64,000 bases of DNA from Candidatus Margulisiibacteriota bacterium (GCA_003242895.1 QKMY01000043.1:19106-83105); one strand, 5' to 3'. Shown: positions 17,968 to 39,913, counted from the stretch's first letter. Translations and numbers: made by a program. The notes: generated by a model not told the origin, from the sequence alone.

Positions 17968-19101
17968 ATGATCTTATTTAATGAACCTCTGGTTACCGGC
18001 AAAGAAAATTATTATATTTCTCAGGTACTTAAAAACAAAAAATTCTGCGGAGACGGTATCTATACAAAAAAATGCAATCAATGGATTGAAGAAAATACCA
18101 AGACAAAAAAAGCCTTACTCACGACCTCTTGCACACACGCGATAGAAATGGCGGCCATTTTGGCAGACATTCAAAAAGGCGATGAAGTGATCATGCCGTC
18201 ATATACGTTTGTCTCAAGTGCCAACCCGTTTGTCCTTCGCGGCGCCAGGATCGTCTTCGTTGATATACGACCGGACACCATGAACATTGATGAAACCAAA
18301 ATCGAAGAAGCAATCACGCCAAGGACAAAAGCCATAGTCCCTGTCCATTACGCTGGCGTCGGGTGTGACATGGATGCGGTTATGAACATAGCAAAAAAAC
18401 ATAATCTGATTGTCATCGAAGATGCTGCGCAAGGGATTATGTCCAGCTATAATTGGACAGCACTGGGCAGTATCGGACATATAGGCTGTTTTAGTTTCCA
18501 CGAAACCAAGAACTACCAATGCGGAGAAGGTGGGGCAATCCTCGTCAACGATCCGAAGTTCATGGAGCAGGCTGAGATCATCAGAGAAAAAGGTACCAAC
18601 CGTACAAAGTTTTTGAGGGGTCAGATAGATAAATATACCTGGGTAGATATCGGGTCCAGTTATTTGCCCAGCGAAATCAATGCCGCGTTCCTGTTTGCCC
18701 AATTAGAAATGTCAGAAGAAGTAAACATAAAACGACATCAATTATGGAATAGATACTATAAGAATTTAAAAGACTTGGAAATAAAAGGATTTCTGGAGTT
18801 ACCCACGATACCTCATCACTGTAGACATAACGCGCATATGTTCTACCTTAAATTGGCAGATATGGAAAAAAGGCATGAGCTTATTGGTTATTTAAGAAGT
18901 AACGAAATACAATCTGCTTTTCATTATATTCCGCTCCATACAGCAAAGGCAGGTTATCAATTCGGAACTTTTGTCGGAGAAGACAAGTATACGACAAGGG
19001 ATAGCGAGAGGATACTCAGATTACCGATGCATTATGATTTGAGCATGGATAATATCGATTTTATTTGCGAAAGAATCCAGTGTTTTTTCGGGAATAAATA
19101 A
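17968..19101 (+). CDS. DegT/DnrJ/EryC1-family sugar aminotransferase, WecE-like (dTDP-4-amino-4,6-dideoxygalactose transaminase type)
   Basis: N-terminus MILFNEPLVTGKENYYISQVLKNKKFCGDGIYTKKCNQWIEE parallels E. coli WecE. PLP-lysine motif FSFHETKN is present. Confidence 0.75.
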   Translation: MILFNEPLVTGKENYYISQVLKNKKFCGDGIYTKKCNQWIEENTKTKKALLTTSCTHAIEMAAILADIQKGDEVIMPSYTFVSSANPFVLRGARIVFVDIRPDTMNIDETKIEEAITPRTKAIVPVHYAGVGCDMDAVMNIAKKHNLIVIEDAAQGIMSSYNWTALGSIGHIGCFSFHETKNYQCGEGGAILVNDPKFMEQAEIIREKGTNRTKFLRGQIDKYTWVDIGSSYLPSEINAAFLFAQLEMSEEVNIKRHQLWNRYYKNLKDLEIKGFLELPTIPHHCRHNAHMFYLKLADMEKRHELIGYLRSNEIQSAFHYIPLHTAKAGYQFGTFVGEDKYTTRDSERILRLPMHYDLSMDNIDFICERIQCFFGNK

Positions 19102-19112
19102 AGGAACTATTA

Positions 19113-20267
19113 ATGGCAGAAGCACTCCAAACCTGTGTGATACATAGCTTTCCGAAATGGCTTGCACAGACACAAACATGGCTATACAACCAGGTCCGCT
19201 ATCTCCCGGAGACGATAGAGAATCATGTTGTTTGCGAAAAGACTTCTAATCTGGAACAATTCCGGGTCCCGAACATACACTGCATGTCTGATATTTCCCG
19301 ATGGAACCTGCTACGCAAAAAGTTCCCGCACAAGCTATTTGCAAGTACTTATTCAGAGTATCTTATTTCACAGGCACAACAGTATGATGCAAACATCCTG
19401 CATTCTCATTTCGGGTACATTGGCTGGGCAAATTTACGGGCAGCTAAAAAAGCGGGACTTAAACATGTCGTAACGTTCTATGGTCTGGATGTTACCTATC
19501 TCCCCAAGGCTTTTTTCCTTTGGTACAGCAGGTATAGAGAATTATTCAAGCACGTTGACCGTGTTCTTTGCGAAGGGCCATTTATGGCAAAAACCGTCGT
19601 TCAAAAGCTTGGTTGCCCGGAAGAAAAAATAATAGTACAGCACCTGGGAGTCACACTTGATACGATACCATTTAAGCTTAGAACCTGGGATGATAATTCC
19701 CCGTTAAAGATATTAATTGCGGCATCCTTTAGAGAAAAAAAAGGAATACCTTATGCACTGGAGGCATTGGGCAGGTTGCAAAAAGATGTACCGATAGAAA
19801 TAACGATTATCGGTGATGCAGGCAGCAAAAGTGAGAAAGACAAAATCCTCGCGATCATAAAAAAATATAAAATGGAATCAAAAACCACGATGCTTGGCTA
19901 TAGACCGTTCTCTGTGCTATTTGAAGAAGCTTACAAGCATCATATATTTTTATCGCCGAGTGTCACAGCAAAAGATGGAGACACGGAAGGCGGAGCACCG
20001 GTATCGGTCATCGAAATGGCAGCAACAGGAATGCCGGTAGTCAGCTCACAACACTGTGATATCCCGGAAATAATCAAACATGGGAAAACGGGATTGCTAT
20101 CAAAAGAACGAGATGTTGATGAAATCTTTGAAAATCTTATGTGGTTAGTGAATAACAAAACCGAATGGGTTACAATTGCTAAAGCAGCCCGGCAGCATAT
20201 TGAATCTGAGTTCAACGCAACGGTCCAAGGCAAGAAACTGGCTTCGATATATGAGGAATTAACGTAG
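19113..20267 (+). CDS. glycosyltransferase family 4 (WcaL-like)
   Basis: C-terminal GT-B motif: EGGAPVSVIEMAATGMPVVSSQHCDIPEII. Confidence 0.7.
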   Translation: MAEALQTCVIHSFPKWLAQTQTWLYNQVRYLPETIENHVVCEKTSNLEQFRVPNIHCMSDISRWNLLRKKFPHKLFASTYSEYLISQAQQYDANILHSHFGYIGWANLRAAKKAGLKHVVTFYGLDVTYLPKAFFLWYSRYRELFKHVDRVLCEGPFMAKTVVQKLGCPEEKIIVQHLGVTLDTIPFKLRTWDDNSPLKILIAASFREKKGIPYALEALGRLQKDVPIEITIIGDAGSKSEKDKILAIIKKYKMESKTTMLGYRPFSVLFEEAYKHHIFLSPSVTAKDGDTEGGAPVSVIEMAATGMPVVSSQHCDIPEIIKHGKTGLLSKERDVDEIFENLMWLVNNKTEWVTIAKAARQHIESEFNATVQGKKLASIYEELT

Positions 20268-20399
20268 TTTTCGGTTATTTTTTGATTTAGGCTTCTATAA
20301 TCAGGCAAAAGCTTGTAAAATAGTATAAGAAATCATAACAAATTATATGTAGTATGTTGATACAATGATATTTCAAATAAGGAGTATATTTAAGTAAAT

Positions 20400-21389
20400 A
20401 TGACTGTTATATTATATATTATTTTTATAGCTCTCTCGGTCTACATATACACTAGGCCGACGATCATGGTATTTAAGTATCATCATATCAGTCCTTTACC
20501 AGAGAATAACCTTAACTACCGGCCTGATACCTTTGACAGACAGATCACTTATATGCTGAATCAAGGATATCAATGCATCAGCGCAGAAGAAATGTATTTC
20601 CAGGTATTTCTCAAAAAAAAAATCAAAAAAAAACAATTTGTTATTACCTTTGACGACGGTTATCTTGATAATTATCTGTACGCATACACTATCCTCAAAA
20701 AACATAACATTCCGGCAACAATATTCTTAACGACTTCACTCATTGCAGATAATGACCAAGAAAGAAATTGTGATAATGCAGTCATGAAAGATGATAATGA
20801 CGCTTTTATTGAATCCTTAAAGAAACGCTACGAAAGTTATCTGAACTGGACTGAAATAGAAGATATGCACAAATCCGGATTAATTGATTTTGAACCTCAC
20901 GGTCATTATCATAGGTATATTTATGTCTCGGATAAGATCGAATATTATAACATTGGAAAAACATTATATGAAAGTTTCAAACTTAAGTCACTCGAAGATA
21001 ATACCATAAAAATCGGTTCCGACGTTTTTAACTCCGGGCCAAGCCTTGCATATCGAGCCTACGATCCACATACCAGAATACGCGAGACTGATTGGCAAGC
21101 TTACAAACGATTTGTTGACGAAATAGGCATTTCAAAGAAAATGATTGAAGAAAAGCTTGAAAAACATTGCGACTTCTTTTCCTGGCCATGGGGTAAGTTC
21201 TGTCACTCAAGCGTTAATGCGGCAAAATATCTAGGGTTTAAAATGATATTTACCAGCTACCCCGGTACAAATAGCCGATTCACTAATCATTTTTACATAA
21301 AACGTTTTAATCCATGCTTAAATGACAAAATATTCAGGAAACAAGTAAAAAAATTCTCGAATTTCCTGCTATCATTATTTAATCGTTAG
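20400..21389 (+). CDS. polysaccharide deacetylase (NodB homology domain) with N-terminal membrane anchor
   Basis: Hydrophobic N-terminus ILYIIFIALSVYIY. NodB motif 1 ITFDDGYLDNY and the HGHYH metal motif. Carries A10 and A9 tracts in the coding sequence. Confidence 0.7.
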   Translation: MTVILYIIFIALSVYIYTRPTIMVFKYHHISPLPENNLNYRPDTFDRQITYMLNQGYQCISAEEMYFQVFLKKKIKKKQFVITFDDGYLDNYLYAYTILKKHNIPATIFLTTSLIADNDQERNCDNAVMKDDNDAFIESLKKRYESYLNWTEIEDMHKSGLIDFEPHGHYHRYIYVSDKIEYYNIGKTLYESFKLKSLEDNTIKIGSDVFNSGPSLAYRAYDPHTRIRETDWQAYKRFVDEIGISKKMIEEKLEKHCDFFSWPWGKFCHSSVNAAKYLGFKMIFTSYPGTNSRFTNHFYIKRFNPCLNDKIFRKQVKKFSNFLLSLFNR

Positions 21390-21512
21390 CTTTGTTTAAC
21401 CTATGCTTAGCCGCTGTCCAAACCCTTGATCGGATTACTGGTACTGCGTAGACCAATAAACTGGAAACAGCGTTCATTACTTATTCCAGTGAAATAATCC
21501 CCTACAATTATC

Positions 21513-21541
21513 ATGACCATTTCAAAAGATTGTAGTATAAT
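21513..21541 (+). promoter_or_regulatory. putative promoter (ATGACC-N17-TATAAT) upstream of the GT4 gene at 21580
   Basis: Hexamers read at 21513-21518 and 21536-21541. Confidence 0.3.
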
Positions 21542-21579: not shown

Positions 21580-22821
21580 ATGAAAAAGTTAAAAATAATC
21601 CATCTATTATCAGACAAATCGATTGTCCCGTCACCACAGCAAGGTGCTGTGCAAAATGTAGCGACCAATTTAGCCGATCAACTTGCGGGTAAACACGATA
21701 CTTATATAGTTTCCTGCTTGGGTAAAGACCAGAAACAATATGAGCTGATCAACGGAGTTCATTATCTGAGGGTTATGCACCGGCTCAAAGGTTTTTACCA
21801 TTACGTCAACAAACTTTCTTTTAACGCGTCATATTACGAGTACCTATTAACATCGGCTTTTGTCATCAAGAAGCTAATGCCGGATATTCTCATCGTCCAC
21901 AACAGACCTGACTATGTCCAGTTACTCCGTAAACACCTTGGTAACGCAGTCAAAATTATTCTCCATGAACATAATCATAATATACGAGATATGTTTTCTG
22001 AGCGCAAAGCCCGGAGAATACTGGATGAAACCGATCTTATTATTGAACTGAGTGAATATAGCAAGAATTATGATATTACAGAGAAATACTCTAAGTATGC
22101 CGGTAAAGCGTGTGTCATTAATAACGCAGTTGACAGCATGATTTTCCGTCCATATTGGGAATCAGAAAACAAACGCCGGCAATTACGAAAAGAACATGGC
22201 CTGGAAAACAAAACAGTAATCTTATTTGCCGGAGCAATTCGAGAAAGAAAGGGCATTCATGTCCTTGTCGATGCGATGGAAAAACTCATAAATGACCATT
22301 CCGATACAGTGCTCCTCATAGCAGGAGGATCAGCTCAGAATACTAACGCAACTGACTCATTTAGTAAAAAAGTATTTAAAAAAGCAAAACAATTGGGAGA
22401 TAAAATAAAAATATTAGGATTTATCCCGCATAGTGAAATGCCGGATATCTATTTGATGGCGGATATTTTCTGTGCTCCCTCGGTATGGGACGAACCTTTT
22501 GGGCTCATCCTCGTTGAGGCAATGGCGACGGGGCTGCCGGTAGTAAGCTCAAAAAGAGGTGGAATTCCTGAAATCGTGGAAGACCGGAAAACCGGACTTC
22601 TGGTTGAGAATCCTGAAGATGCGATTAGTCTTGCCGATTCGCTGACAACGCTATTAAATGATCATAAAATGAGAACCAGCATGGGCAGAAAAGGAAGAGA
22701 AAGAGTAGAGAATAACTTTTCCTGGAAAGATTCCGCGCAGCAGTTAAATAAAATTTTAACTATTGTCGAAAACAAAAGATTAAACAAATTTCGTAGATTT
22801 GATAGAAGGGTAGGCAATTAA
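21580..22821 (+). CDS. glycosyltransferase family 4
   Basis: Motif EPFGLILVEAMATGLPVVSSKRGGIPEIVEDRKTG (E-x7-E region). Confidence 0.8.
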   Translation: MKKLKIIHLLSDKSIVPSPQQGAVQNVATNLADQLAGKHDTYIVSCLGKDQKQYELINGVHYLRVMHRLKGFYHYVNKLSFNASYYEYLLTSAFVIKKLMPDILIVHNRPDYVQLLRKHLGNAVKIILHEHNHNIRDMFSERKARRILDETDLIIELSEYSKNYDITEKYSKYAGKACVINNAVDSMIFRPYWESENKRRQLRKEHGLENKTVILFAGAIRERKGIHVLVDAMEKLINDHSDTVLLIAGGSAQNTNATDSFSKKVFKKAKQLGDKIKILGFIPHSEMPDIYLMADIFCAPSVWDEPFGLILVEAMATGLPVVSSKRGGIPEIVEDRKTGLLVENPEDAISLADSLTTLLNDHKMRTSMGRKGRERVENNFSWKDSAQQLNKILTIVENKRLNKFRRFDRRVGN

Positions 22822-22898: not shown

Positions 22899-23936
22899 AT
22901 GAAAAAAGCATTAATCACAGGGATAACAGGACAAGACGGTTCGTATCTTACCGAGATTCTCATTGACAAAGGTTACGAGGTTCACGGAATTATCAGACGC
23001 AGTAGCCAGTTTAACACGGGAAGAATTGACCACCTGTATCAGGACCCTCATAACCAAGATATAAAAATGCATCTTCATTACGGAGACCTTACTGACTCAA
23101 GCAACCTCAATCGAATCCTTGAGAAAGTCCATCCTGACGAGATCTATAACTTAGCGGCTCAGTCCCACGTACAGGTGTCATTTCAAGTCCCTGAGTATAC
23201 TGCTGAAGTCGATGCAGTAGGCACTCTCAGGTTTCTTGATGCTATCAAAGAGACTGGAATTAAGACAAGATTTTATCAGGCTTCAACGTCTGAATTATAT
23301 GGAAAAGTACAAGAAGTTCCTCAATCAGAGACCACTCCCTTCTACCCACGGTCACCTTATGCGGTCGCTAAGCTTTATGCATATTGGATTGTTGTGAACT
23401 ATCGAGAGGCGTATAACCTGCATGCCTCAAATGGTATCCTGTTTAACCATGAGTCACCTCGTCGCGGCGAAACTTTCGTAACCAGAAAAATTACACTTGC
23501 CGTAGCGGACATTTTAGCCGGAAAAAAAGAAAAGCTTTTCATGGGAAATCTCGACGCAAAAAGAGATTGGGGTTTTGCTCCTGATTTTGTCGAAGGTATG
23601 TGGAGAATTATGCAACAAGATGAACCGGGTGATTATGTTCTTGCTACCGGAGAGATGCATACCGTAAAAGAGTTCATCGAGCGTTCATTTAAGGTTGCTG
23701 GAATAGATATTGAATGGAAAGGCCACGCCAGGGAAGAAGTCGGGATTAACAAAAAAACCGGTAAAGTTATAGTCGAAATAGATCCTCGCTATTTCCGTCC
23801 TGCAGAAGTTGAACAGTTGCTGGGTAATCCTGCAAAAGCTAAATCAAAACTTGGTTGGGAACCAACTGTAAAATTTGACGACCTCGTTGAGATTATGGTA
23901 AAAGCGGACTGTAAAGCCGTTGGCATTAATTTATAA
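22899..23936 (+). CDS. gmd: GDP-mannose 4,6-dehydratase
   Basis: Motifs [24 protein letters not shown] (YxxxK) and [17 protein letters not shown]. Confidence 0.95.
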
Positions 23937-24000: not shown

Positions 24001-24936
24001 ATGAATAAAAACTCAAAAATATACGTAGCAGGACACAATGGTCTCGTTGGCTCTGCATTAATGAGAAAGCTATCGAATGATGGCTATACGAATATTGTTT
24101 ACAGAACGGGACGAGAACTTGATCTGCGAGAACAAGCAGCCGTCCGGAATTTCTTCGAGCAGGAGAAGCCCGAGTACGTCTTTTTAGCTGCTGCAAAAGT
24201 TGGAGGCATTCATGCTAACAATACCTATACCGCAGAATTTATCTATGATAATCTCATGATAGAATCGAACGTTATACACCATAGCTACAAAAATAAGGTA
24301 AAAAAATTACTATTTCTGGGAAGCTCTTGTATTTATCCCAAATTGTCATCTCAACCGATAAAAGAAGAATATTTGCTTACCGGGGAATTAGAACCGACGA
24401 ATGAGCCTTATGCAATTGCCAAGATTACCGGAATTAAAATGTGTCAGTCTTACAACAAGCAATACGGAACGAAGTTTATCAGTGTCATGCCGACGAACCT
24501 TTATGGTCCAAATGATAACTACGACCTTCAGAATTCTCATGTTCTTCCGGCCCTTATTAGAAAATTTCATGAAGCGAAGGTTAATAGTTCACCAACCGTA
24601 TGCGTCTGGGGTACTGGCAGCCCCCGCCGTGAATTCCTTTATGTCGATGATCTTGCCGATGCTTGTGTTTATTTAATGAACTCTTATGAAGGCGATGACA
24701 TCGTGAATATCGGTACAGGAGAAGATATTACGATCGCAGAACTTGCTTCAACCATAAAAACCATTGTAGGATTTCAAGGAGAACTTGTTTATGATACCAC
24801 GAAACCTGATGGAACACCTCGCAAACAGCTTGATGTCAACAAGGTTCATGGACTAGGCTGGAAACATAAAACAGCGCTTAAAGACGGGATACTGAAAGCG
24901 TACCAAAGCTACATTGAAAAAAGCAAAGCTTATTAG
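24001..24936 (+). CDS. fcl: GDP-L-fucose synthase (GDP-4-keto-6-deoxymannose 3,5-epimerase/4-reductase)
   Basis: Motifs [21 protein letters not shown] (YxxxK) and [12 protein letters not shown]. Follows gmd. Confidence 0.9.
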
Positions 24937-24984: not shown

Positions 24985-25866
24985 GTGAAAAAAAAGATAA
25001 AAATAAATTTTGCAGATTTCTGGCCTGACTTTATTAAAACAGATAATTATTTTTATAATCTACTGCGCCAGGTCTATGATGTCGAAATATCAGAATCACC
25101 GGATTTTCTGTTTTATTCCGCATTTACCAATAACCACAAAAAATATAAATGTCTAAAAATATATTACACCGGAGAGAACCGCAGACCTGACTTCAATGAA
25201 TGTGATTACGCTTTTACTTTTGATTACATCGACAACCCGGACCATTACAGATTGCCTCTTTATGTCATGTATGATGAGCCTACAAAACTCATTAAACCAG
25301 CTTCTTTTAATGCTGAAGATATATTAAAAGAGAAAACAAAATTCTGCAATTTCGTCTTTTCAAATGGGAGAGATTCTGCAAAAAAACGTACCGATTTTTT
25401 TCATGCTTTGTCAAAATACAAAAGAGTAGATTCAGGAGGCAAATTCCTCAATAACATCGGAGGTCCAGTAAAAGACAAACTTGCCTTCATCAAAGATTAC
25501 AAATTTACAATTGCGTTTGAGAATGCCTCATATCCCGGGTATACTACCGAAAAAATATTTCAGCCTATGCAAGTTAACAGTCTGCCGATCTATTGGGGAA
25601 ATGAACTTGTCGATAGAGATTTTAATACCAAAAGCTTTTTGAATTACCATGAGTTTGAAAGTATGGAAGCGTTGATTGAAAAGGTGATTGAATTAGACAA
25701 AAATGACGACCATTATATAGAATATGTAAAACAACCTTTTTACAAAAACAATACCTTAAATGAATTTATCAATCCGGAAAAAATTCTGAAACAATTTGAT
25801 TATATTTTAAAAAATGAGAAAGTTCCCGTTGCTCAAGCCAAGAAGAAACGCTTTTTCTTTTTCTGA
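24985..25866 (+). CDS. alpha-1,3(/4)-fucosyltransferase, glycosyltransferase family 10
   Basis: Strong resemblance to Helicobacter pylori FutA: YYTGENRRPDFNECDYAFTFD, YRLPLY, YKFTIAFENASYPGYTTEKI and LPIYWGN..DFNTKSFLN. GTG start. Basic/hydrophobic C-terminal tail KKKRFFFF. Confidence 0.85.
   Translation: MKKKIKINFADFWPDFIKTDNYFYNLLRQVYDVEISESPDFLFYSAFTNNHKKYKCLKIYYTGENRRPDFNECDYAFTFDYIDNPDHYRLPLYVMYDEPTKLIKPASFNAEDILKEKTKFCNFVFSNGRDSAKKRTDFFHALSKYKRVDSGGKFLNNIGGPVKDKLAFIKDYKFTIAFENASYPGYTTEKIFQPMQVNSLPIYWGNELVDRDFNTKSFLNYHEFESMEALIEKVIELDKNDDHYIEYVKQPFYKNNTLNEFINPEKILKQFDYILKNEKVPVAQAKKKRFFFF
25839..25859 (+). repeat. copy 1 of a 21-nt exact direct repeat CAAGAAGAAACGCTTTTTCTT
   Basis: Identical 21-mer read at 25839-25859 and 27967-27987 on the + strand. 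Confidence 0.9.
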
Positions 25867-26029: not shown

Positions 26030-26965
26030 ATGAGCAAAATAAATATATTTATAACAGGAAGTACCGGATGTGTAGGCTCTTACGTTTTTGACGAGCTCAT
26101 TAAAAACAGCAGCTACAAGCTCCACCTGCTCGCAAAAACTCCCGGCAAACTGCGAATCAACGAGGCACAAAAAGAGAACGTAGTTCCTATTCATTCCAGT
26201 CTTTATTCCATTTCGGAATTCAAAGATTTACTCCAGGAAATGGATTATGTTATTCATATTGCCACCGTTTGGGGCGGGCGGGCATGCTGGGACATTAATT
26301 TTGAAAAAACCATGGAGTTTTTTTCATTGCTCAATCCACAACGATGCCGCAAAATCATCAATTTCTCTACTGCCAGTATTCTAACTGATAATAACGAACT
26401 TATTTCGCAATCTGTTGTGGAGCAAGCAACCGGATATATCGAAACAAAATATAGGCTCTACCAACAGATGAAGTCATTACCTATAGCTTCCAAAATTACA
26501 ACGCTCTTCCCGACGCTAGTTATGGGAGGTGGTTATGGGCATTCAATATCCCATATTAACTCAGGTCTTAAAACAGCAGCAAAATATATAAAACTACTAC
26601 GCTACTTTACTGCTGATTCCCAATTCCATCACATTCACGGACAAGACATTGCCTTAGTTATTAATTATCTTCTTGAAAATGATAACCATGACAACAACCT
26701 GGTATTGGGAAATGATATTATTTCAGCAGACTACATAATTGAGACACTAAGCAAGGTAAAAGGGGTTAACCGAAGCTTCAAGCTGGATATCACCGACGGA
26801 ATTACTAAATATTTCCCTCAGCTCCTCAATATGTCCCCATGGCAAAAGTACAGCCTTGAAAAGCGCCACTTTGTATATAATACGGTGAATACCAAGACAT
26901 TTGGAATAGATTCTCCGTATCAGGATTTTGAGTATTGTGTCCGCGATTGTCTTGGCTTAATATAA
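26030..26965 (+). CDS. NAD(P)-dependent epimerase/dehydratase (extended SDR) family protein
   Basis: N-terminal Rossmann motif IFITGSTGCVGSYV. Size and context fit a sugar-nucleotide-modifying SDR. Otherwise divergent. Confidence 0.55.
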   Translation: MSKINIFITGSTGCVGSYVFDELIKNSSYKLHLLAKTPGKLRINEAQKENVVPIHSSLYSISEFKDLLQEMDYVIHIATVWGGRACWDINFEKTMEFFSLLNPQRCRKIINFSTASILTDNNELISQSVVEQATGYIETKYRLYQQMKSLPIASKITTLFPTLVMGGGYGHSISHINSGLKTAAKYIKLLRYFTADSQFHHIHGQDIALVINYLLENDNHDNNLVLGNDIISADYIIETLSKVKGVNRSFKLDITDGITKYFPQLLNMSPWQKYSLEKRHFVYNTVNTKTFGIDSPYQDFEYCVRDCLGLI

Positions 26966-29806: not shown

Positions 29807-30176
29807 TGTTTAAATTTCTTTTGATATCAAAATTATTAATTCTAACATTTTACTACAGTTCCATGATTAGTTCTATGTGTTGAATAAACGCTACTTCGAT
29901 AATTCTTGCAACCGGTTTAATTATTAAGATAAATTGGCATATATACATTTAACAGAATTATCCGGGGATAAAGACACCGTTTCGACAAACCTTGTCCAGG
30001 TTTTCTTATGCAAATATCTGTGTTATATTATTTAAAGCCTTTTTATATTTAATAACATTATGGTGCCATAACATTTTGTGGTCACTAGATTATACGCTTT
30101 TCATCCTACAACGGAAACAGTTCTAATAGCTTATACGAGATGATATAACTAAACAAATAAAAGGACGGGAAATAAT

Positions 30177-31216: not shown

Positions 31217-32131
31217 ATGATTTTTAAAACACCAATACTATTTATAATATTTAATCGACCGGATACAACTCAAGTGGTTTTTGATGAAATAAAAAAGGTT
31301 AAACCCGAAAGACTATTTATAGCCGCAGATGGTCCCCGGGCTGACAAAGAAGAAAATGAAAAATGTCAAATGACGAGGGATATAATAAAACAAGTTAATT
31401 GGGATTGTGATATACATACCTTATTCAGGGAGAAGAATGTCGGTTGTAAGCGTGCTGTAAGCTCTGCAATTGATTGGTTTTTTGAGAATGTAGAGGAAGG
31501 AATAATATTAGAAGATGATTGTGTTCCCAGCCAATCTTTTTTTATGTTTTGCAACCAATTACTAGAACATTACAGGCACGATAAACGGGTTATGATGATA
31601 TCCGGTGATAACTTCCAAAATGGAGTACAACGAGGAAATGCTACCTATTATTTCTCCAGAATTGCTCATATTTGGGGATGGGCAACATGGAGAAGGGCTT
31701 GGCATCTTTACGATGCAAATTTAAAAACATTCCCGGATTTTCTTGCCAGTAACCAAATAAGCAATGTTTATTCCGAACCTGAAATTAAAGAATACTGGAT
31801 CAATTGCCTTAGCGCGGTTTCAAGCAATAAAATTAATACATGGGATTACCAATGGGGCTATACTCTTCTAATGAATAATGGCCTATCGATAATGCCTAAT
31901 ATAAACCTTATCAGCAATATTGGATTTGGGGCAGATGCGACTCATGTAACCAACAGTAACAGCGAATTATCAAATATGAATAAATATGAGCTTTCAGAAA
32001 AGATTATACATCCGATGTTTACTTTGCCTAACAAAGAAGCTGACAACTATACCTATATTAATCATTACGGCTTGAAAAAACCAACTTTTAAGAAAAAGTT
32101 TAAAAGAGCAATAAGCTCCTTAAATGCCTAG
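31217..32131 (+). CDS. GT-A nucleotide-diphospho-sugar transferase (HlpA-like / GNT-I-like family)
   Basis: Motifs PILFIIFNRPDTTQVVFDEIKK..LFIAADGPR and GIILEDDCVPSQSFF (EDD motif). ATG at 31217 follows GGGGCA; the ORF is open from GTG 31163. Confidence 0.6.
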   Translation: MIFKTPILFIIFNRPDTTQVVFDEIKKVKPERLFIAADGPRADKEENEKCQMTRDIIKQVNWDCDIHTLFREKNVGCKRAVSSAIDWFFENVEEGIILEDDCVPSQSFFMFCNQLLEHYRHDKRVMMISGDNFQNGVQRGNATYYFSRIAHIWGWATWRRAWHLYDANLKTFPDFLASNQISNVYSEPEIKEYWINCLSAVSSNKINTWDYQWGYTLLMNNGLSIMPNINLISNIGFGADATHVTNSNSELSNMNKYELSEKIIHPMFTLPNKEADNYTYINHYGLKKPTFKKKFKRAISSLNA

Positions 32132-32245
32132 CCAGAAATAACCCAAGTATATTCTTTTTAGTCTATTCCTGAAAAAAATATCATTTCCATTTCAAACAAT
32201 TTATGGCAATCAAATACATATATTCACAAATCCTAATAATATGCT

Positions 32246-33436
32246 ATGATAGGCGCGCCATTAATGATAGGGGGATATTGCGTGAGAAGCTCTATTCAAT
32301 TATTCTTGAATAAAAGGTTTTTTAATAAAAATGAGGACATCACTCATAGAGGATATCACAATACAATAATAGACTATATCAAGGCAGATGGCACAATAGA
32401 TTACAAACTCATTTACCCATCGCATAGAATTAAGAGAAAACGTCCGTTTACTTTAGGAGAGTTACACTGGAAATTCGAGCGTGACCGGGAATTTGTAACT
32501 CCGGATGCTTTTTTTACCATGATAAAAAATGGCAAAATCTTTGGGGAGACAGGTTCTGTTATTACGCCTGACAATAAAATCATTGGAGACCTAGCTGTTG
32601 AGATGGGTAAAACAACAGCTCACCACACATATCTAACTCTTAACTCGATTCCCAGTCCTACTAGGATAGATGGCAACGTTGCAGTTATCGCCTGTGATGC
32701 CGGTAAAAATTATTTTCACTGGATGTTTGACGTATTACCCCGGCTTGACTTGATATCCAAGGCTGGGGTCCCTTTCAATAGTATTGATAAGTTTGTTGCC
32801 AACAAATGCACTAATAAGTTTCAACTCGATACATTGAAAGTAATCGGCATACCAAAAAGCAAGCTTATTTATGCCGATAAAAGTTTTTATGGGCAGGCTT
32901 CTTCGCTACTCGTACCTTCATATCCGGGATTATCTGGGTTTATGCCGAAGTGGTCTTGTGATTTTTTACGAAGAAATTTATTAGATAAAACTGATTTAAA
33001 GCAAAAAAAAAATTATCCGGAGAAAATTTATATTTCGAGAAACAAAAAGAACAATGTTCGACAGATTTCCAATGAAAATGAAATGCTGAACATAATTAAA
33101 CCGATAGGATTCAAGACAATTGTTCTTGAGGATATGCCCATTCTAGAACAGATACGGTATTTTGCGCATGCCGGAGTTGTATTAGCTGCTCATGGTGCGG
33201 GATTATCTAATCTCGTTTTCTGTAAGCCGGAATGCAAAGTCATAGAGCTGTTCTCTCCTAATTATTTAAATTTATGTTTTTATTATTTATCCGATTTACT
33301 CGATTTAGACTACGCGTATGTGCTTGGTGAAGGAGAAGAACCTCCCAGATTTGTCTGTCCGGGGAAAGGACGAGAAAATATCACTATAAATATTGAGCTG
33401 CTGAAAAAAATGCTGCAGACATTTGTAGCTTTTTAA
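32246..33436 (+). CDS. glycosyltransferase family 61 (DUF563)
   Basis: Motifs NYFHWMFDVLPRL and AHGAGLSNLVFCKPECKVIELF are typical of DUF563/GT61. Contains an A10 tract. Confidence 0.7.
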   Translation: MIGAPLMIGGYCVRSSIQLFLNKRFFNKNEDITHRGYHNTIIDYIKADGTIDYKLIYPSHRIKRKRPFTLGELHWKFERDREFVTPDAFFTMIKNGKIFGETGSVITPDNKIIGDLAVEMGKTTAHHTYLTLNSIPSPTRIDGNVAVIACDAGKNYFHWMFDVLPRLDLISKAGVPFNSIDKFVANKCTNKFQLDTLKVIGIPKSKLIYADKSFYGQASSLLVPSYPGLSGFMPKWSCDFLRRNLLDKTDLKQKKNYPEKIYISRNKKNNVRQISNENEMLNIIKPIGFKTIVLEDMPILEQIRYFAHAGVVLAAHGAGLSNLVFCKPECKVIELFSPNYLNLCFYYLSDLLDLDYAYVLGEGEEPPRFVCPGKGRENITINIELLKKMLQTFVAF

Positions 33437-33486: not shown

Positions 33487-34629
33487 ATGCTTATATTTGA
33501 TAAACTTTTTCGTGGTTTTAATAAAAAGAAGAAAAAACAAAAGATAGAGTTGCTTGAAAATATAAATGGAACTTACTTTAGCAAAAATGCATTGATTCTA
33601 TACATGACAGCACCATTTCTTCCTGATAATCCGAACAAAACCCACCAAAACATGCTACAAGTAAAAGAATTAGTAAAAATTGTTGGCAATTACAAATATA
33701 ATGTAGATCTTGTAGATTTCAATAATAAGCTACAATTAAACCGAACGTACGACCTCATCATCGATATACATCCTGGAATCGCACCTATCTATGAGCATAA
33801 AATGAGTCCTGACTGCAAAAAAATTGCCTATATAACCGGATCTAATCCGGATTTTTCTATCAAAGCAGAGTTACTGCGGGTGCAGGCAGCAAATAGTAGG
33901 ACCGGAGCAACCTTAAAACAAAGACGAATAGTTAATCTCTTCAGGAAAGATGTTCTTGATACTTTTGATTCATTCTTTCTAATAGGTAACGAGCATACCC
34001 GCAGTACTTTTAACGAATATGCTGCGAATAGATTTTTTTTAATAAGAAATACAGGATACATTAATTTCCCTCAACCTGACTTTTCTAAGAAGCAAACCAA
34101 CAACTTCTTGTATTTCGCTAGTTTTGGTCAAATCCACAAAGGGCTTGATCTACTGTTAGAAGTTTTTTCCAAGAATAAAAATATCAATCTTTATGTTTGC
34201 AGCAACTTTGAAAGTGAAGGGGATTTTTACCGTGCATATAAAAGATATTTGTACAAAAACAAAAACATTTTCCCTATAGGCTTTGTAGATATTAATAGTA
34301 AACAGTATCAGCAAATTGCAGATAAATGCAGCTATGTGGTTATGCCGTCCTGTTCGGAAGGAATGGCTGGCAGTATACTGACAGGGATGTCATCCGGGCT
34401 AATTCCTATTGTAAGTAGAGAGTGCGGATTAGACGAAGGGGACGTATATATATTTGAAAATTGTTCTATTGATTGTATAGATAAAACTCTAACAGCATTT
34501 GCAAGAAAAAGTAGTGAATGGATAAGGCATGAATCCAGTAGAATTCAGCAAATAGTTCGTGATAAATATTCGATGAATAACTATAGAGAACAGATTAGAG
34601 CTGCCTTAACAAATATTATACCGGTATAA
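33487..34629 (+). CDS. putative GT-B fold glycosyltransferase
   Basis: C-terminal MPSCSEGMAGSILTGMSSGLIPIVSRECG resembles the GT1/GT4 nucleotide-sugar binding region. The N-terminal half is not recognisable. Confidence 0.5.
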   Translation: MLIFDKLFRGFNKKKKKQKIELLENINGTYFSKNALILYMTAPFLPDNPNKTHQNMLQVKELVKIVGNYKYNVDLVDFNNKLQLNRTYDLIIDIHPGIAPIYEHKMSPDCKKIAYITGSNPDFSIKAELLRVQAANSRTGATLKQRRIVNLFRKDVLDTFDSFFLIGNEHTRSTFNEYAANRFFLIRNTGYINFPQPDFSKKQTNNFLYFASFGQIHKGLDLLLEVFSKNKNINLYVCSNFESEGDFYRAYKRYLYKNKNIFPIGFVDINSKQYQQIADKCSYVVMPSCSEGMAGSILTGMSSGLIPIVSRECGLDEGDVYIFENCSIDCIDKTLTAFARKSSEWIRHESSRIQQIVRDKYSMNNYREQIRAALTNIIPV

Positions 34630-34712: not shown

Positions 34713-35840
34713 TTACGTAAGGATACTCGCATATACCTGGTTTGTTGATTCTGCAGTCTTATCCCATGAAAACTTCGCCAATTGTTCATACCCTTTTAAT
34801 TTATAATCATTTAAGATATCTTTATCATAGAGTATTTTCCCAACTTCACTTCGAATGGAATCTTTTTCTGTCGGCTCAAAATATATACCGGCTTTCCCTG
34901 CAACCTCAGGAAACGAACTGCTGTTACTCAATAGAACAGGGCACCCGTAAGTAAACGCTTCGAGTATAGGAAGTCCGAATCCTTCGTAAAGCGAAGGGAA
35001 TACGAACGCTAATGCTCGCGAATATAAACACGCTAAAGTATCATCATTTACAGGTAATTGAATTGTTTTATCTTTCACCCGTAATTTTTCGAAGACTTCT
35101 AATTCTGCAGAGGAAAAAGAACCACCTCCGGCACAGATCAAATAAAGATTTTTGTCCTCCGATAATAGTGGGGTAATCGCAGAAATAAAGGTGTCGAAGT
35201 TTTTATAGCCGCCTCTATTGCCCACAAACAATATAAATCGTTCAGGAGTTGTCGCAACATGCTTATTCAAATCACTTTCGCTTAATGTTGGAGGACCAAG
35301 ATAAACCGTTGAGATCTTATCAGAACCTATGTTATAAAACTTCATAATGTCTATTTTCGTATTTTCAGAGATCGCGATAATCTTTGCTGCTTTCCGGGCT
35401 AATTCTTTTTTTCTTTCTATAGATTTGTCCGAGGCATGATTAGATCCCGGGAATAATTCATGGATCATATCATAAATAGTAAGGACAAAAGGTTTATTGC
35501 CAATATGCTCCAAAAAGTACGTATCGTAATAAGTTGGGTGGAAAATATCAAATTGCCCAGATCTAAGGGCATTAACACTATGCGCTATATTAACCTGGGA
35601 CCTTTTTTTATTAAAGTGGCGTCTCAGTCCTTTAAAAAACCTGTTCTTCATAAATTGTTTGTGTGTGGAAAAGGAAGCGTTGGTCAAATAATGATTGTCA
35701 GAGTAACGAAGAGAAAAATCGACGGTCACATTATATTTGGAAGTGCCTAGGTGAAACGTATTGATAATCTCGGAAAAATATCTGGAGATCCCTCCATATT
35801 GCTGTATATTAAAAATTTGATGATCGTATAGTATCTTCAT
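34713..35840 (-). CDS. glycosyltransferase family 4 (mannosyltransferase-like)
   Basis: MKILYDHQIFNIQQYGGISRYF is a typical N-terminus for this GT4 subgroup. Motif FPSLYEGFGLPILEAFTYGCPVLLSNSSSFPEV is present. The ORF is open up to TTG 35870, and that extension includes an A10 tract. Confidence 0.8.
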   Translation of the reverse strand: MKILYDHQIFNIQQYGGISRYFSEIINTFHLGTSKYNVTVDFSLRYSDNHYLTNASFSTHKQFMKNRFFKGLRRHFNKKRSQVNIAHSVNALRSGQFDIFHPTYYDTYFLEHIGNKPFVLTIYDMIHELFPGSNHASDKSIERKKELARKAAKIIAISENTKIDIMKFYNIGSDKISTVYLGPPTLSESDLNKHVATTPERFILFVGNRGGYKNFDTFISAITPLLSEDKNLYLICAGGGSFSSAELEVFEKLRVKDKTIQLPVNDDTLACLYSRALAFVFPSLYEGFGLPILEAFTYGCPVLLSNSSSFPEVAGKAGIYFEPTEKDSIRSEVGKILYDKDILNDYKLKGYEQLAKFSWDKTAESTNQVYASILT

Positions 35841-35915: not shown

Positions 35916-36698
35916 ATGAAATGTAAAATTTGCTATAATGAATCTACTTATATATTTTCATCAATTTTGTTGAACAAACATAACGTATCTTATTTTTTTT
36001 GCCCTTTTTGTAATTTTCTGCAAACAGAAGAACCGTACTGGTTAGAAGAATCCTATAATGAAGCCATCAACAAATCAGACACTGGCATTTTTGAAAGAAA
36101 TTTTTATTACAGAGAGAAAACCGCAATTTTAATATATCATTTTTTTGACAAAAATAAAAAGTTTTTGGAGTATGCCGGTGGTTATGGAATACTCACAAGG
36201 CTGATGCGTGATATAGGCTTCGATTTCTATTGGAGCGACAAATATTCAAAAAATCTTTTTGGAAGAGGATTCGAATTCAACGAAACACATTCCAATATCG
36301 AGTTGATTACTACATTTGAAAGTTTTGAGCATTTTGATGAGCCGATTAAAGAAATTGAGACTATGCTGGCGATTTCCGACAGCGTCTTTTTTTCGACGGA
36401 ATTACTACCAAGCCCCATACCACAACCTGACAACTGGTGGTATTACGGCTTAGATCATGGGCAACATATTTCGTTTTATTCAATTAAAACATTGAACTAT
36501 TTGGCGCAAAAATACAATTTGAACTTATATACAAATAAAAACAACTTTCATCTTCTCACAAAAAATGACATTAAAGAAAAATATTTCATCAAATTACTTT
36601 GTTCTAAAAACAAATTGTTTGAGAAAATTAAACACAAGATGGACAGCAAAACAATGAATGATTATTATTACATCACTGAAGAGATTTTAAGAAAATAA
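35916..36698 (+). CDS. class I SAM-dependent methyltransferase with N-terminal Cys4 zinc-ribbon
   Basis: CKIC..(x22)..CPFC zinc ribbon. Motif I-like LEYAGGYGILTRLM. Located inside the glycan island. Confidence 0.6.
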   Translation: MKCKICYNESTYIFSSILLNKHNVSYFFCPFCNFLQTEEPYWLEESYNEAINKSDTGIFERNFYYREKTAILIYHFFDKNKKFLEYAGGYGILTRLMRDIGFDFYWSDKYSKNLFGRGFEFNETHSNIELITTFESFEHFDEPIKEIETMLAISDSVFFSTELLPSPIPQPDNWWYYGLDHGQHISFYSIKTLNYLAQKYNLNLYTNKNNFHLLTKNDIKEKYFIKLLCSKNKLFEKIKHKMDSKTMNDYYYITEEILRK

Positions 36699-36746
36699 TA
36701 ATAATCAAGAGAAAAATGACTTTTTTCGAAAACGAAATCAAACAAT

Positions 36747-37952
36747 ATGAAAAAAATAATGAAAAAAACAGCCATTATAGCTCCATATACGAGACCCGTA
36801 CCGCCGGTACGGGGTGGGGGAGTACAAATCGGGATCGCGGAAGTCGTCAATCACTTCAAACAATTTAAGCCTTATGTCTTCTCCGTTGCGGATAAAGAGC
36901 TCCCGGAAAAGCACATCATTGGGAATGCACAGTTCATACATATAACGGTTACCAAAGAAAGTATGAGGAGTTCCGTATTCGATATATGGAGCCTTAAGGA
37001 ATACGTACATTATTGTTACCAGATTGCGCAATATCTCAATGAAATCCAACCGGAGATAATCCATATCCGTGTCAACCCATGGTTCGTGAGGCCCCTGAAA
37101 AGATTTTTGAAATATAACCCTAAAATCATTTTGCAACATCACACCTGCCCATTCAGCAGATCGATGAAATCCTGGGAAATAAAGTCGATAATGAACAGTA
37201 TCGATATGTTTACCGGGGTATCTGGTTATGTAGTTAATCGTGAAGTACTAAGTCCATATCCGGTTTATGAAAAAAAATGCAGGGTTATCTATAATGGGAT
37301 AAATCCTGAACATTTTACGCCGTACTGGCTCAATGGGTCAGAAAGAAAGAAGCATAGAGCTTCCTTTGGAATAGATGATCATGAACTATTATTGCTCTAT
37401 GTAGGACAGATCAGGGAAAATAAGGGAGTACTCTCCGTTATTAAAGCTTTCAATGAACTGGAAAAGATAAATAAAAATGTTAAACTAATGATGATCGGCA
37501 GTCCTTCCGGTGGAAGCGACAAACCGGACAAAGAACAGAAGGTGTTTTTTGATAGCTTCAAAAAAGAGATAGCCAATAAACCTGCCATTATATACAACGG
37601 CTTTACCGGAAGAAATAAGATACAGGACCTATACCAAATGGCAGACATTTTTTGTGCGCCGTCTATCGTAACAGAAACTTTCGGACTTGTTATTGCTGAA
37701 GCTATGGCGTCAGGGCTTCCGGTTATTTCGAGTACGCGGGGAGGTATACCGGAACTTGTGGGTGATGCAGGTTATATGGTTGAACATCCTGAATTTCCAG
37801 ACGAAATACTACCTTTAATGCAGATGTTAGTTTCGGATAGGCAATTGCGAGAGAGAATAGGGCGTTCAGCCAGGACAAGGATTGAAAACAATTTCACATG
37901 GGAGAAAACTGCCGCAACTACAGAGCAAATTTATCTGGAATTATTGGAGTAA
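36747..37952 (+). CDS. glycosyltransferase family 4 (first of a tandem paralog pair)
   Basis: Motifs AIIAPYTRPVPPVRGGGV and ETFGLVIAEAMASGLPVISSTRGGIPELV. An alternative ATG lies at 36759. Confidence 0.8.
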   Translation: MKKIMKKTAIIAPYTRPVPPVRGGGVQIGIAEVVNHFKQFKPYVFSVADKELPEKHIIGNAQFIHITVTKESMRSSVFDIWSLKEYVHYCYQIAQYLNEIQPEIIHIRVNPWFVRPLKRFLKYNPKIILQHHTCPFSRSMKSWEIKSIMNSIDMFTGVSGYVVNREVLSPYPVYEKKCRVIYNGINPEHFTPYWLNGSERKKHRASFGIDDHELLLLYVGQIRENKGVLSVIKAFNELEKINKNVKLMMIGSPSGGSDKPDKEQKVFFDSFKKEIANKPAIIYNGFTGRNKIQDLYQMADIFCAPSIVTETFGLVIAEAMASGLPVISSTRGGIPELVGDAGYMVEHPEFPDEILPLMQMLVSDRQLRERIGRSARTRIENNFTWEKTAATTEQIYLELLE

Positions 37953-37954
37953 TA

Positions 37955-39148
37955 ATGAAAAAAGTAGCAATTATCGCACCGGATGCATTACCAGTTCCGC
38001 CAATCAGGGGAGGCGGAATAGAAAATGGCATATGGGAAATCCTGCCACATTTGAAAAAATTCGAAGTACACGTACTCTCGATATATGAACCGGAAATCGA
38101 TAAGCTGTCATCATACGAGAAGGAAGGGCAGCATCATATTCATCGTTTTTACCTCTCTGATCGAAAAAAAGCGCTTCTCCGGCTACGACATTTATCTTTT
38201 AACTTCCATTTTCCATATGCTTTTGCCACTGCAAAAAAACTGAATGAATTAAAACCTGATATCATCCATATCAGAAGTCGATTATGGTTACTGCCATATT
38301 ATAAAAAGCTTCTAACTTTTAAACCGAAAATTATTTTACATCACCATAACCACTATTTCTGCAATATGAAGGATAAATCAGTAAAGAAATATCTCGATAT
38401 GATCGACGCTTTTGTTGGTGTGAGCCATTATACCTCATCCCTTGAAGTAATTAACCGGTTCCCAGAATACCAGAATAAGTGTTTTGATATCCATAACGGA
38501 ATAACTCTCGAAAAATTTCATCTTTCACCTCAACAAAAAAACAAAGATCTATTGCAGAAATTAGGACTAAAAGCAACCGATACTACTATGATCTTTGTTG
38601 GGAGATTGACTCACTCTAAAGGAGTTCACACAATACTCTTAGCCATGAAGGAGCTCGTTCCTCAGTATCCGGATTTGAAGTTGTTGATTATTGGCAGTTC
38701 CTGGTTTGGCGAAAATAAAGAAGACACTTATTCTACCTATTTAAAGGAATTATCACTCTCGATAAAGAATAACGTAATTTTCACGGGATTTATCAATCGT
38801 AATGAAATAGAGTCCTATTACCACGTGGCAGATCTTTTCGTTGCACCGTCTATTTTTCAAGACCCTTCGCCAAACACTTGCTATGAAGCCTCGGCAGTAG
38901 GATTGCCGATAGTAGCATCAACACGGGGCGGAATACCAGAAATTGTTGAGGATGGAAAAACCGGAATCCTGATGAAAACTGCCGAAAATTATCAAGAACT
39001 AAAAGAGAAAATCACTTACTTCTTAACCAATCGTGAGGTGATGGAAATGATGGGAAAGGCAGCGAGAAAACGAATGGAAAATGTTTTCACATGGAAATGT
39101 GCTGCAGAAAAAACTGAGAAATTATATAGTTATCTCTTAGACTCTTAA
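37955..39148 (+). CDS. glycosyltransferase family 4 (second of a tandem paralog pair)
   Basis: MKKVAIIAPDALPVPPIRGGGI parallels the upstream paralog. Motif PNTCYEASAVGLPIVASTRGGIPEIVEDGKTG is present. ATG at 37955 lies 2 nt after the previous stop. Confidence 0.8.
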   Translation: MKKVAIIAPDALPVPPIRGGGIENGIWEILPHLKKFEVHVLSIYEPEIDKLSSYEKEGQHHIHRFYLSDRKKALLRLRHLSFNFHFPYAFATAKKLNELKPDIIHIRSRLWLLPYYKKLLTFKPKIILHHHNHYFCNMKDKSVKKYLDMIDAFVGVSHYTSSLEVINRFPEYQNKCFDIHNGITLEKFHLSPQQKNKDLLQKLGLKATDTTMIFVGRLTHSKGVHTILLAMKELVPQYPDLKLLIIGSSWFGENKEDTYSTYLKELSLSIKNNVIFTGFINRNEIESYYHVADLFVAPSIFQDPSPNTCYEASAVGLPIVASTRGGIPEIVEDGKTGILMKTAENYQELKEKITYFLTNREVMEMMGKAARKRMENVFTWKCAAEKTEKLYSYLLDS

Positions 39149-39220
39149 CTTCATAGTTTACAATTCATAATGTATCTTCCATAATATTAAGTAAATCAAT
39201 TCCTTGATTAAGGAGCTAAT

Positions 39221-39913
39221 TTGATAAAACATATACCGATTATTCGTTACCAAGATATCGCTAAAACAGCCAAAGATAAAGAAACAACAACTCTCGATCT
39301 CCTTGAATACCAACTTAAATATCTTCATAATAAAGGATTCGAGACTTTGACATTAGAACATTTAAGCGAGAGCCTTGATGAATATACTCCTCGAAAAATA
39401 GTTCTTACCTTTGACGGAGGGTATTTAGGGCACTACCAATATGTATTTCCATTACTTCAACGCTACAACTATACCGGAGTATTCTTTATACCTACAAACC
39501 ATATCGGAGTCTTATCTTCCTGGGGTTATTCAAAAAAAAGCCTGCTCAGTTTTGAAGATATCTTTGAAATGTATCAATGGGGGATGGAGATAGGTGTCAA
39601 CTCTGCTTCTCATTGCGATTTGACAACACTAACCGCTGAGGAGCTGGCAGAAGAGATTATTGATAGCAAAAAATGTCTTGAAAAAATGCTGACCAGTGAA
39701 GTCAAATACTTTTCTTATCCTTATGGAAAGTATAACAATAAAGTTAAAGATTGTGTTCAACAAGCAGGATATACTAATGCTGTAAGCATATTTGACAAGC
39801 AAAAAGACTTATCAAATTCGAGGTTTGCTATAGACAGACTTCAGACAACCAACAAAAAGAATATTTTTAGCTATCTCGATATTCGCCGGGTTGCAAGTGG
39901 AACCTGGAAATAG
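39221..39913 (+). CDS. polysaccharide deacetylase (NodB homology domain)
   Basis: Motifs LTFDGGYLGHY and SHCDL. TTG start with AAGGAG 5 nt upstream. Confidence 0.7.
   Translation: MIKHIPIIRYQDIAKTAKDKETTTLDLLEYQLKYLHNKGFETLTLEHLSESLDEYTPRKIVLTFDGGYLGHYQYVFPLLQRYNYTGVFFIPTNHIGVLSSWGYSKKSLLSFEDIFEMYQWGMEIGVNSASHCDLTTLTAEELAEEIIDSKKCLEKMLTSEVKYFSYPYGKYNNKVKDCVQQAGYTNAVSIFDKQKDLSNSRFAIDRLQTTNKKNIFSYLDIRRVASGTWK

Follow-up and report, generated by a model that had tools for sequence, protein, structure and literature searches.

In Helicobacter pylori, whose lipopolysaccharide (LPS) bears Lewis antigens, the genes for initiation and flipping are not clustered with those for the transferases: WecA, Wzk and WaaL are encoded apart from them. 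The fucosyltransferase of this system (FucT, family GT10) carries a heptad-repeat tail. Three Wzx/Wzy clusters from metagenome contigs (L137, L124 and L110) hold a priming transferase, Wza and Wzc as well as Wzx and Wzy or EpsG, all within 10 kb; their glycosyltransferases are all soluble, and nucleotide-sugar genes are embedded among them. In Cyanobacteria, the genes for assembly and export of exopolysaccharide (EPS) are scattered (PMC4594306). Here we describe a glycan-biosynthesis island of about 22 kb from Candidatus Margulisbacteria, an uncultivated sister lineage of the Cyanobacteria, situated at positions 17968–39913 of a 64,000-nucleotide stretch of DNA (QKMY01000043.1:19106-83105; called the window throughout). 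An analysis of outer-membrane tethering classes the Margulisbacteria as diderm Terrabacteria with OmpM homologues; a paper on the Riflemargulisbacteria holds nothing on envelope or glycans.

The island is a run of 20 back-to-back open reading frames (ORFs), 17 on the plus strand and three on the minus strand, separated by gaps of no more than 371 bp. On the left it is bounded by mutS and holA, and on the right by a convergent sepF followed by alr and dnaX. A preliminary description of this DNA had placed 20 consecutive glycan-type ORFs between holA and a convergent sepF-like gene, and the ORF listing, with all 20 ORFs lying where that description had put them, agrees, as do searches with Pfam and NCBIfam (NCBIfam calls were made at equivalog cutoffs; for the last six ORFs of the window, precomputed Pfam labels were taken from a near-identical contig). 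Its list of families was borne out nearly item by item, that of the UDP-xylose synthase through human UXS1. By these assignments, the island supplies GDP-L-fucose (Gmd and Fcl), UDP-xylose (UXS) and dTDP-4-amino-4,6-dideoxyhexose (WecE), and encodes about 11–12 soluble or peripheral glycosyltransferases (GTs), five of them clear GT4 members, plus one S-adenosylmethionine (SAM) methyltransferase and two NodB-family deacetylases. Clustering of nucleotide-sugar genes (Gmd, Fcl, UXS and WecE) with 11–12 GTs is a property of Wzx/Wzy clusters, and the island works like a surface-glycan cluster of the Wzx/Wzy or ATP-binding-cassette (ABC) type; as primer, flippase and polymerase are not in the window, it does not make up a complete one. 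Nor is it a core cluster of the waa type.

We put the probability at about 0.6 that the island encodes the cytoplasmic half of a surface-heteroglycan pathway (O-antigen, capsule or EPS type) linked to undecaprenyl diphosphate (Und-PP) in a diderm member of the Margulisbacteria. This is the most likely interpretation because its enzyme families sit elsewhere in ordinary capsule and O-antigen clusters. A priming phosphoglycosyl transferase (PGT), encoded elsewhere in the genome, would act first, and the transferases would then assemble an oligosaccharide on the lipid carrier, on the inner side of the cytoplasmic membrane. The product, bearing fucose and xylose and in part O-methylated and in part de-N-acetylated, would be handed to a Wzx-type or PglK/MsbA-type flippase and then to a polymerase or ligase, all encoded elsewhere.

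The neighbourhoods of homologues in other contigs were surveyed around a gene for a GT13-like GT-A glycosyltransferase of GnT-I/POMGnT1 fold (GT13L; 31217..32131, plus strand, the start being that called in other assemblies). Eighty metagenome loci with a GT13-like gene were retrieved, of which 39, each 7 kb or longer, were analysed. A cassette, GT13L-(methyltransferase)-GT4, recurs across unrelated contigs (for example, L106, L110, L122, L124, L138, L145 and L159). In the window, the GT4 partner (GT4c; 34713..35840, minus strand; Glycos_transf_1, 86 bits; 375-aa start taken from other assemblies) is inverted, and the cassette is split by a GT61 gene and by a divergent GT-B protein with a GT1/GT4-type C-terminal domain (33487..34629, plus strand; Glyco_trans_1_4, 36 bits; Glycos_transf_1, 33 bits). 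The methyltransferase partner (35916..36698, plus strand; Methyltransf_23, 66 bits) joins a zinc ribbon, whose CxxC...CxxC pattern can be read at the N-terminus, to a class I SAM methyltransferase domain. GT4c homologues occur in 18 of the 39 loci, mostly at 39–48% identity within the cassette, and methyltransferase homologues in 10 (33–52% identical). In four loci (L113, L159, L161 and L163), as in the window, the gene directly upstream of GT13L encodes UXS (64–69% identical), and the cassette of L138 adjoins a GT10 gene 54% identical to ours. The likely contribution of the cassette is a conserved methylated motif; the methyltransferase, whose homologues are recurrently linked or fused to GT13L, is a candidate chain terminator.

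Membrane components of lipid-linked pathways are frequent around these homologues. Wzx is present in 10 of the 39 loci, usually just upstream of GT13L, and a PglK/MsbA-like ABC half-transporter lies upstream in five, directly adjacent in three. Among 66 polytopic neighbours, Pfam recognized 21 Wzx (Polysacc_synt) proteins, six MsbA/PglK-like ABC half-transporters and four Wzy_C proteins, with WecA-type (two), ABC-2 (two) and Bac_transf (one) proteins being rarer. The gene order by Pfam is Wzc-GT61-GT2-Wzx-GT13L-Wzy-GT4-x-GT2-GT1-WecG in L137, Wza-x-MT-Wzx-GT13L-GT4c-Gmd-MT-MBOAT in L124 and Fcl-Wzx-...-GT13L-MT-GT4c-EpsG-...-Bac_transf in L110 (MT, methyltransferase). In a fourth locus, L086, a GT61 homologue accompanies Wzm/Wzt (with Wzt_C) and many methyltransferases. 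Like the island, L137, L124 and L110 have homologues of GT13L (47–52% identical), GT4c, the methyltransferase, GT61 or Gmd/Fcl, embed their nucleotide-sugar genes and use soluble transferases throughout. The island is therefore made up of components that are standard in bacterial pathways for lipid-linked surface polysaccharides.

The preliminary description had seen in GT10, GT61 and a GnT-I-like enzyme a eukaryote-like repertoire rather than a classical bacterial set. Their nearest relatives speak otherwise. The GT10 protein (24985..25866, plus strand) is an α-1,3/4-fucosyltransferase of the bacterial (H. pylori FucT) type, with FucT_N (95 bits) and Glyco_transf_10 (81.7 bits; gathering score 23.9) domains. 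Its best match in the PDB is H. pylori FucT (E = 1.2e-30), against E = 6e-10 for a plant core fucosyltransferase and 2e-7 for human FUT9. The island resembles the Lewis-antigen system in having a GT10 most similar to that FucT, a GDP-fucose supply, a predicted fucosylated product and no initiation or flipping genes beside its transferases; it differs in clustering 20 genes, which add UXS, GT61, GT13L, WecE, deacetylases and a methyltransferase, and in the length of its FucT, which at 293 aa is much shorter than the matched H. pylori chains (371 and 420 residues). The GT61 protein (32246..33436, plus strand; PF04577, 105 bits against a gathering score of 27) belongs to a bacterial clade with more than 1,345 bacterial homologues, some labelled 'capsular polysaccharide biosynthesis protein' at source. 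Its best named homologues, at 40–46% identity, are cyanobacterial (Nostoc, Laspinema and Fischerella) or from Heliobacteria, and eukaryotic GT61 structures (EOGT and POMGNT2) are barely detected (E ≥ 6e-4, EOGT best). The cyanobacterial link is to EPS genes of the sister lineage; a locus matching the island in its 20-gene content was not identified in Cyanobacteria, and the cyanobacterial GT61 proteins are themselves uncharacterized. Homologues of these enzymes sit in canonical clusters, from Wzc through GT61, Wzx, GT13L and Wzy to WecG in one case and with Wza or Bac_transf in others, which counts against the view that the set is non-classical. GT10, GT61 and GT13L come together in none of the 39 comparison loci, and pairs of them do occur in canonical Wzx/Wzy clusters. 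GT10, GT61 and GnT-I-like enzymes are common bacterial capsule and O-antigen parts, and not markers of eukaryote-type glycosylation.

GT13L itself matches no Pfam family (E ≤ 0.01, the GNT-I model included), no NCBIfam model and, whether searched as a single sequence or as a profile, no PDB sequence at E ≤ 1. An AlphaFold model built from 35 homologues reached a predicted local distance difference test (pLDDT) score of 93, and Foldseek placed it closest to human POMGnT1 and rabbit GnT-I (5ggi and 1fo8; E ~1e-10, TM-score ~0.55), both GT13 members, and then to GnT-II. The GT-A fold and an E-D-D metal/nucleotide motif are shared with the eukaryotic enzymes; this motif (E99-D100-D101) is invariant in the 35 homologues. 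GT13L differs from eukaryotic GT13 enzymes in having no membrane anchor or stem, and identity in the structural alignments is 12–16%. Judged from the predicted model, GT13L is akin to GnT-I at the level of the fold, without membership in the GT13 sequence family. The earlier label, a GNT-I-like GT-A enzyme, thus survives for the fold and fails for the sequence family.

A profile search with GT13L gathered 14,472 cluster representatives (50% identity), with E ≤ 1e-30 for 5,522; homologues at 53–65% identity number at least 8,000, and the usual annotation in the family is 'hypothetical'. Homologues that bear organism names are all bacterial and span Atribacteria, Spirochaetes, Omnitrophota, Bacteroidetes and Wallbacteria. 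Recurrent fusions of the domain to methyltransferases (Methyltransf_23/11, FkbM and TylF), GT2 or GT4 support a role in polysaccharide assembly. Since UXS adjoins GT13L here and in four other loci, GT13L may be a xylosyltransferase, with UDP-xylose rather than UDP-GlcNAc as its donor. It is rather improbable, in our judgement, that this very large unannotated bacterial GT family is a prokaryotic counterpart of eukaryotic GT13/GT16 and makes, with the bacterial-clade GT10 and GT61 enzymes, a fucose- and xylose-decorated glycan that parallels plant-type decoration. A bolder version of that proposal would add a non-canonical acceptor with no dedicated primer or flippase. Two UBA-type assemblies, DPRN01000014.1 and DPKH01000041.1 (L091 and L092), lack short stretches at window positions 31397–31450 and 32138–32218. 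The gaps break the GT13-like gene into pieces of 238 and 63 aa, and DPKH01000041.1 has in addition a GT61 shortened to 305 aa. They may reflect misassembly or, in exactly these genes, genuine variation within the population.

Several observations weigh against the assignment to the cytoplasmic half of an Und-PP pathway, the membrane complement first among them. Kyte–Doolittle hydropathy across all 56 window ORFs revealed no polytopic membrane protein, and the 64-kb window has no PGT, Wzx, Wzy, Wzz/Wzc, ABC transporter, ligase or oligosaccharyltransferase; nor do the 8.6 kb upstream and ~6 kb downstream that sibling assemblies provide, where polytopic membrane proteins are likewise absent. At the level of domains, PF02397 and PF00953 (initiating PGTs) find no match in the window or the contig flanks, and within the window the same is true of Polysacc_synt/MOP (Wzx), of Wzy_C, EpsG, Wzz and GNVR, and of ABC2_membrane with ABC_tran (Wzm/Wzt) or a PglK-like exporter. 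This is where the island departs from L137, L124 and L110, since what those clusters keep within 10 kb is missing here over more than 60 kb. Elsewhere, a flippase usually accompanies the GT13L cassette, so that its absence here is a real departure. Supply genes RmlA/RmlB, ManB/ManC and Ugd are also absent from the window (for Ugd, no UDPG_MGDP_dh match in Pfam among the window ORFs scanned), 12 transferases exceed the typical need of a Wzy repeat unit, and the presence of the membrane components elsewhere in the genome is assumed. The preliminary description had likewise found no priming, flipping or export genes, which hydropathy and Pfam uphold for the window; its conclusion that acceptor and route are unexplained is fair at that scale, and a split locus, an arrangement with precedents in the scattered genes of Cyanobacteria and of H. 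pylori LPS, is the simplest reading. The missing membrane steps are probably a mundane question.

The sole membrane feature of the island is an N-terminal helix (residues 1–19) in the first NodB-family polysaccharide deacetylase (20400..21389, plus strand; Polysacc_deac_1, E = 1.7e-18). No positive charge precedes this helix, and arginine and lysine residues follow just after it, as they do in the orthologue of a related contig (L099, 13492–14484). By the positive-inside rule, the anchored catalytic domain may face the cytoplasm, unlike periplasmic deacetylases of the PgaB/IcaB type. The second NodB-family deacetylase (39221..39913, plus strand; Polysacc_deac_1, 86 bits) has no signal peptide or transmembrane helix, is predicted to be cytoplasmic and shows weak similarity to the oligosaccharide deacetylase HfsH. 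An apparent helix in the ORF starting at 37898 falls within an over-extended start, and the 371-bp divergent gap at 29806–30177 hides no small membrane ORF. Besides housekeeping genes, the additional flanks hold only a secreted GH8 protein of 1,185 aa and an unrelated GT2. On one sibling contig (L001, 1151–8054, ~1–8 kb before the window start), this GT2, a 380-aa protein of Glyco_trans_2_3 type with two weak transmembrane helices, lies near the GH8 and a WYL/helix-turn-helix regulator; the GT2 and GH8 may form a separate β-glucan/cellulose-like synthase–hydrolase system. Some 10 kb 3' of the island (50227–52062), a strong GT2 (299 aa, no transmembrane helix) and a membrane-anchored metallophosphoesterase stand among housekeeping genes and may be another, unlinked envelope-glycan component.

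Absence of priming and flippase genes from the window would be expected if the enzymes extended an LPS outer core or lipooligosaccharide, with sugars added directly to lipid A-core at the cytoplasmic face and the product exported by MsbA, the general lipid flippase; such a route can do without a dedicated primer, Wzx or Wzy. In its favour, the lineage is classed as diderm, the GT10 protein is closest to an LPS decorator, H. pylori FucT, and several of the GT4 proteins match models of LPS GlcNAc- or Gal-transferases, all of these scores being below the cutoffs. Such an extension is nonetheless unlikely: the window contains no GT9 heptosyltransferase, Kdo transferase, lpx, waaL or other lipid A-core-specific match, LPS transferase models are reached by window ORFs only far under their cutoffs, and the homologues of GT13L, GT4c, GT61 and the methyltransferase sit elsewhere beside Wzx, Wzy, Wzc, Wza and PGT genes. 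The Lewis antigens of H. pylori are, moreover, built on Und-PP. A lipid-linked intermediate is retained if the product is instead an oligosaccharide made on Und-PP and passed to protein (S-layer, pilin, flagellin or an OmpM-type protein) by an O- or N-oligosaccharyltransferase encoded elsewhere. The many distinct GTs and a methyl cap would suit a defined oligosaccharide without repeats, Wzy and Wzz are missing from the window, and PglK-like ABC flippases flank GT13L in five other loci. With no oligosaccharyltransferase (PglB, PglL, STT3 or Wzy_C-type ligase) or target-protein gene nearby, and with models for PglH and PglJ matched only far under their cutoffs, general protein glycosylation is an improbable destination as well, to about the same degree as the core extension.

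Two further proposals were weighed. One dispenses with the carrier, a priming PGT and a dedicated flippase and would have the island make a diacylglycerol glycolipid or a soluble or protein-bound cytoplasmic glycan. All of its transferases are soluble, its GT4 proteins resemble diacylglycerol glycosyltransferase models weakly, and one deacetylase has no export signal; the glycolipid synthase models are matched far under their cutoffs, and the fucose, xylose and 4-amino-sugar chemistry, like the neighbourhoods of homologues, points to exported polymers, which makes this proposal very unlikely. The other is that of the preliminary description, a decoration resembling eukaryotic N-glycans (GnT-I, β-1,2-xylose and core α-1,3-fucose) on a protein-linked core. 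In its favour, GT10, GT61 and the GnT-I-fold enzyme are found together with GDP-fucose and UDP-xylose supply, a threesome met in none of the 39 comparison loci. We regard it as highly improbable, as the nearest relatives of each enzyme are bacterial, the window lacks an oligosaccharyltransferase, mannosyl core machinery and any type-II membrane anchor, and pairs of the enzymes are found in canonical bacterial Wzx/Wzy clusters.

Near-identical proteins name the host as members of the Candidatus Margulisbacteria (GWE2_39_32, GWF2_38_17 and GWD2_39_127), and the contigs of this population derive from Rifle aquifer groundwater and sediment metagenomes. The same island is present in about 10 assemblies of the population at 99.5–99.98% nucleotide identity, and these are therefore uninformative on its variability. 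A search of genome contigs with MutS returned only distant relatives (≤50% identity, mostly Clostridia) and no synteny. More can be learned from L099, whose HolA is 59% identical and in which the order pheS-pheT-mutS-holA is followed by orthologues of the left arm of the island: WecE (65% identical), a first GT4 (GT4a, 64%), the anchored NodB deacetylase (59%), a second GT4 (GT4b, 59%) and Fcl (72%). The comparison covers this arm, from WecE to Fcl, as the contig stops before the core. Housekeeping genes of L099 are 59–75% identical to those of the window. Because it is syntenic behind holA at housekeeping-level identity, the left arm reads as old and vertically inherited, with some internal gene-level remodelling: L099 has an extra GT4 (14474–15559, minus strand) between the NodB and GT4b orthologues, and its Fcl follows GT4b directly, with no gmd in between.

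The core of the island (24.9–36.7 kb) had been described as AT-rich and taken as possibly variable or acquired. AT-richness is real and modest, with a gene GC of 0.350 against 0.384 in non-island genes (p = 0.003). GC at third codon positions (0.345 against 0.331, p = 0.25) and synonymous codon usage do not set the core apart from non-island genes, so the bias lies in amino-acid composition. The suggestion of a variable or acquired region was not sustained, there being no foreign signal in codon usage or third-position GC and a left arm that is syntenic in L099; the window has no tRNA gene, and Pfam scans that covered the island and most other ORFs of the window met no integrase or transposase domain. 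A scan of the island for promoters and terminators stayed near shuffle expectation and did not delimit operons. Outside the island, a DUF188 (YaiI/YqxD) gene (9099–9551, minus strand) has a GC of 0.477 against a window mean of 0.377 and a codon-usage distance (2.05) among the highest of the window.

The remaining genes of the island fill in the supply and assembly of sugars. The first (17968..19101, plus strand) encodes a WecE-type dTDP-4-amino-4,6-dideoxygalactose transaminase (NCBIfam NF008687, 627.6 bits against a cutoff of 375; Pfam DegT_DnrJ_EryC1, E = 9e-89). In exceeding the WecE equivalog cutoff it recalls the enterobacterial common antigen of Escherichia coli, from which the window differs in having no WecA, WecD, WecF, WzxE, WzyE or rmlA/rmlB. 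For GDP-L-fucose, Gmd (GDP-mannose 4,6-dehydratase; 22899..23936, plus strand; TIGR01472, 587 bits against 415) and Fcl (GDP-L-fucose synthase; 24001..24936, plus strand; NF047922, 514 bits against 500) both pass their equivalog cutoffs, as the de novo pathway demands. UXS (UDP-glucuronate decarboxylase, that is, UDP-xylose synthase; 30177..31118, plus strand) provides the UDP-xylose step and matches human UXS1 over its full length (phmmer, E = 4.5e-127). An Arn-like pathway of aminotransferase, UXS/ArnA-like decarboxylase and NodB/ArnD deacetylase was considered and rejected because the aminotransferase (206 bits against an ArnB cutoff of 631) is a WecE equivalog and the decarboxylase a true UXS. 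An orphan extended short-chain dehydrogenase/reductase, epimerase/reductase-like (26030..26965, plus strand; Pfam Epimerase, E = 1e-13), has no NCBIfam match above any cutoff.

Among the transferases, GT4a (19113..20267, plus strand; Glycos_transf_1 and Glyco_transf_4) is distantly WcaL-like, with an NCBIfam score under the cutoff, and GT4b (21580..22821, plus strand) scores 152 bits with Glycos_transf_1. Towards the right end lie GT4d (36747..37952, plus strand; 115 bits with the same model) and GT4e (37955..39148, plus strand; 145 bits), the latter given the 397-aa start (37955) of other assemblies, as the ORF start at 37898 is over-extended. A reading of the GT4 proteins as anti-phage 'GT4-conflict' components was set aside, those matches being much weaker than the generic GT4 ones. 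Two genes on the minus strand encode a borderline GT2-like GT-A protein (27961..28845; Glycos_transf_2, 24.5 bits against a cutoff of 23.3) and a GT2 enzyme with no transmembrane helix (28877..29806; Glycos_transf_2, 67.6 bits). To the left of them, a DUF5672 protein (27004..27945, plus strand; PF18922, 174 bits) is presumed to be a glycosyltransferase. A sequence search of the PDB with it gave only noise and no match, and its single-sequence AlphaFold (AF2) model, with a pLDDT of 41, is too poor to use. DUF5672 is also mentioned in a paper on Streptococcus suis secretion-system effectors.

Towards the left end of the window, with pyruvate:ferredoxin oxidoreductase genes on its flanks, a cluster at positions 2635–7505 encodes both subunits, small and large, of a NiFe hydrogenase along with MvhD (FlpD) and an HdrA-like Fe-S flavoprotein. 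It agrees with a published account of hydrogen-based metabolism in Margulisbacteria from sediment (PMC6349859).

Taken by its parts, the island is an ordinary bacterial glycan locus, though a large and compositionally interesting one in a poorly known phylum. Slightly above routine are the co-occurrence of GT10, GT61 and GT13L, the lack of linked membrane genes and the large, unmodelled GnT-I-fold family. The most useful by-product is this huge uncharacterized family, with a conserved cassette that is absent from database models. For the Margulisbacteria, the island affords a first gene-level view of surface-glycan biosynthesis, and it predicts a glycan with fucose, xylose, an amino-deoxyhexose and O-methyl groups.

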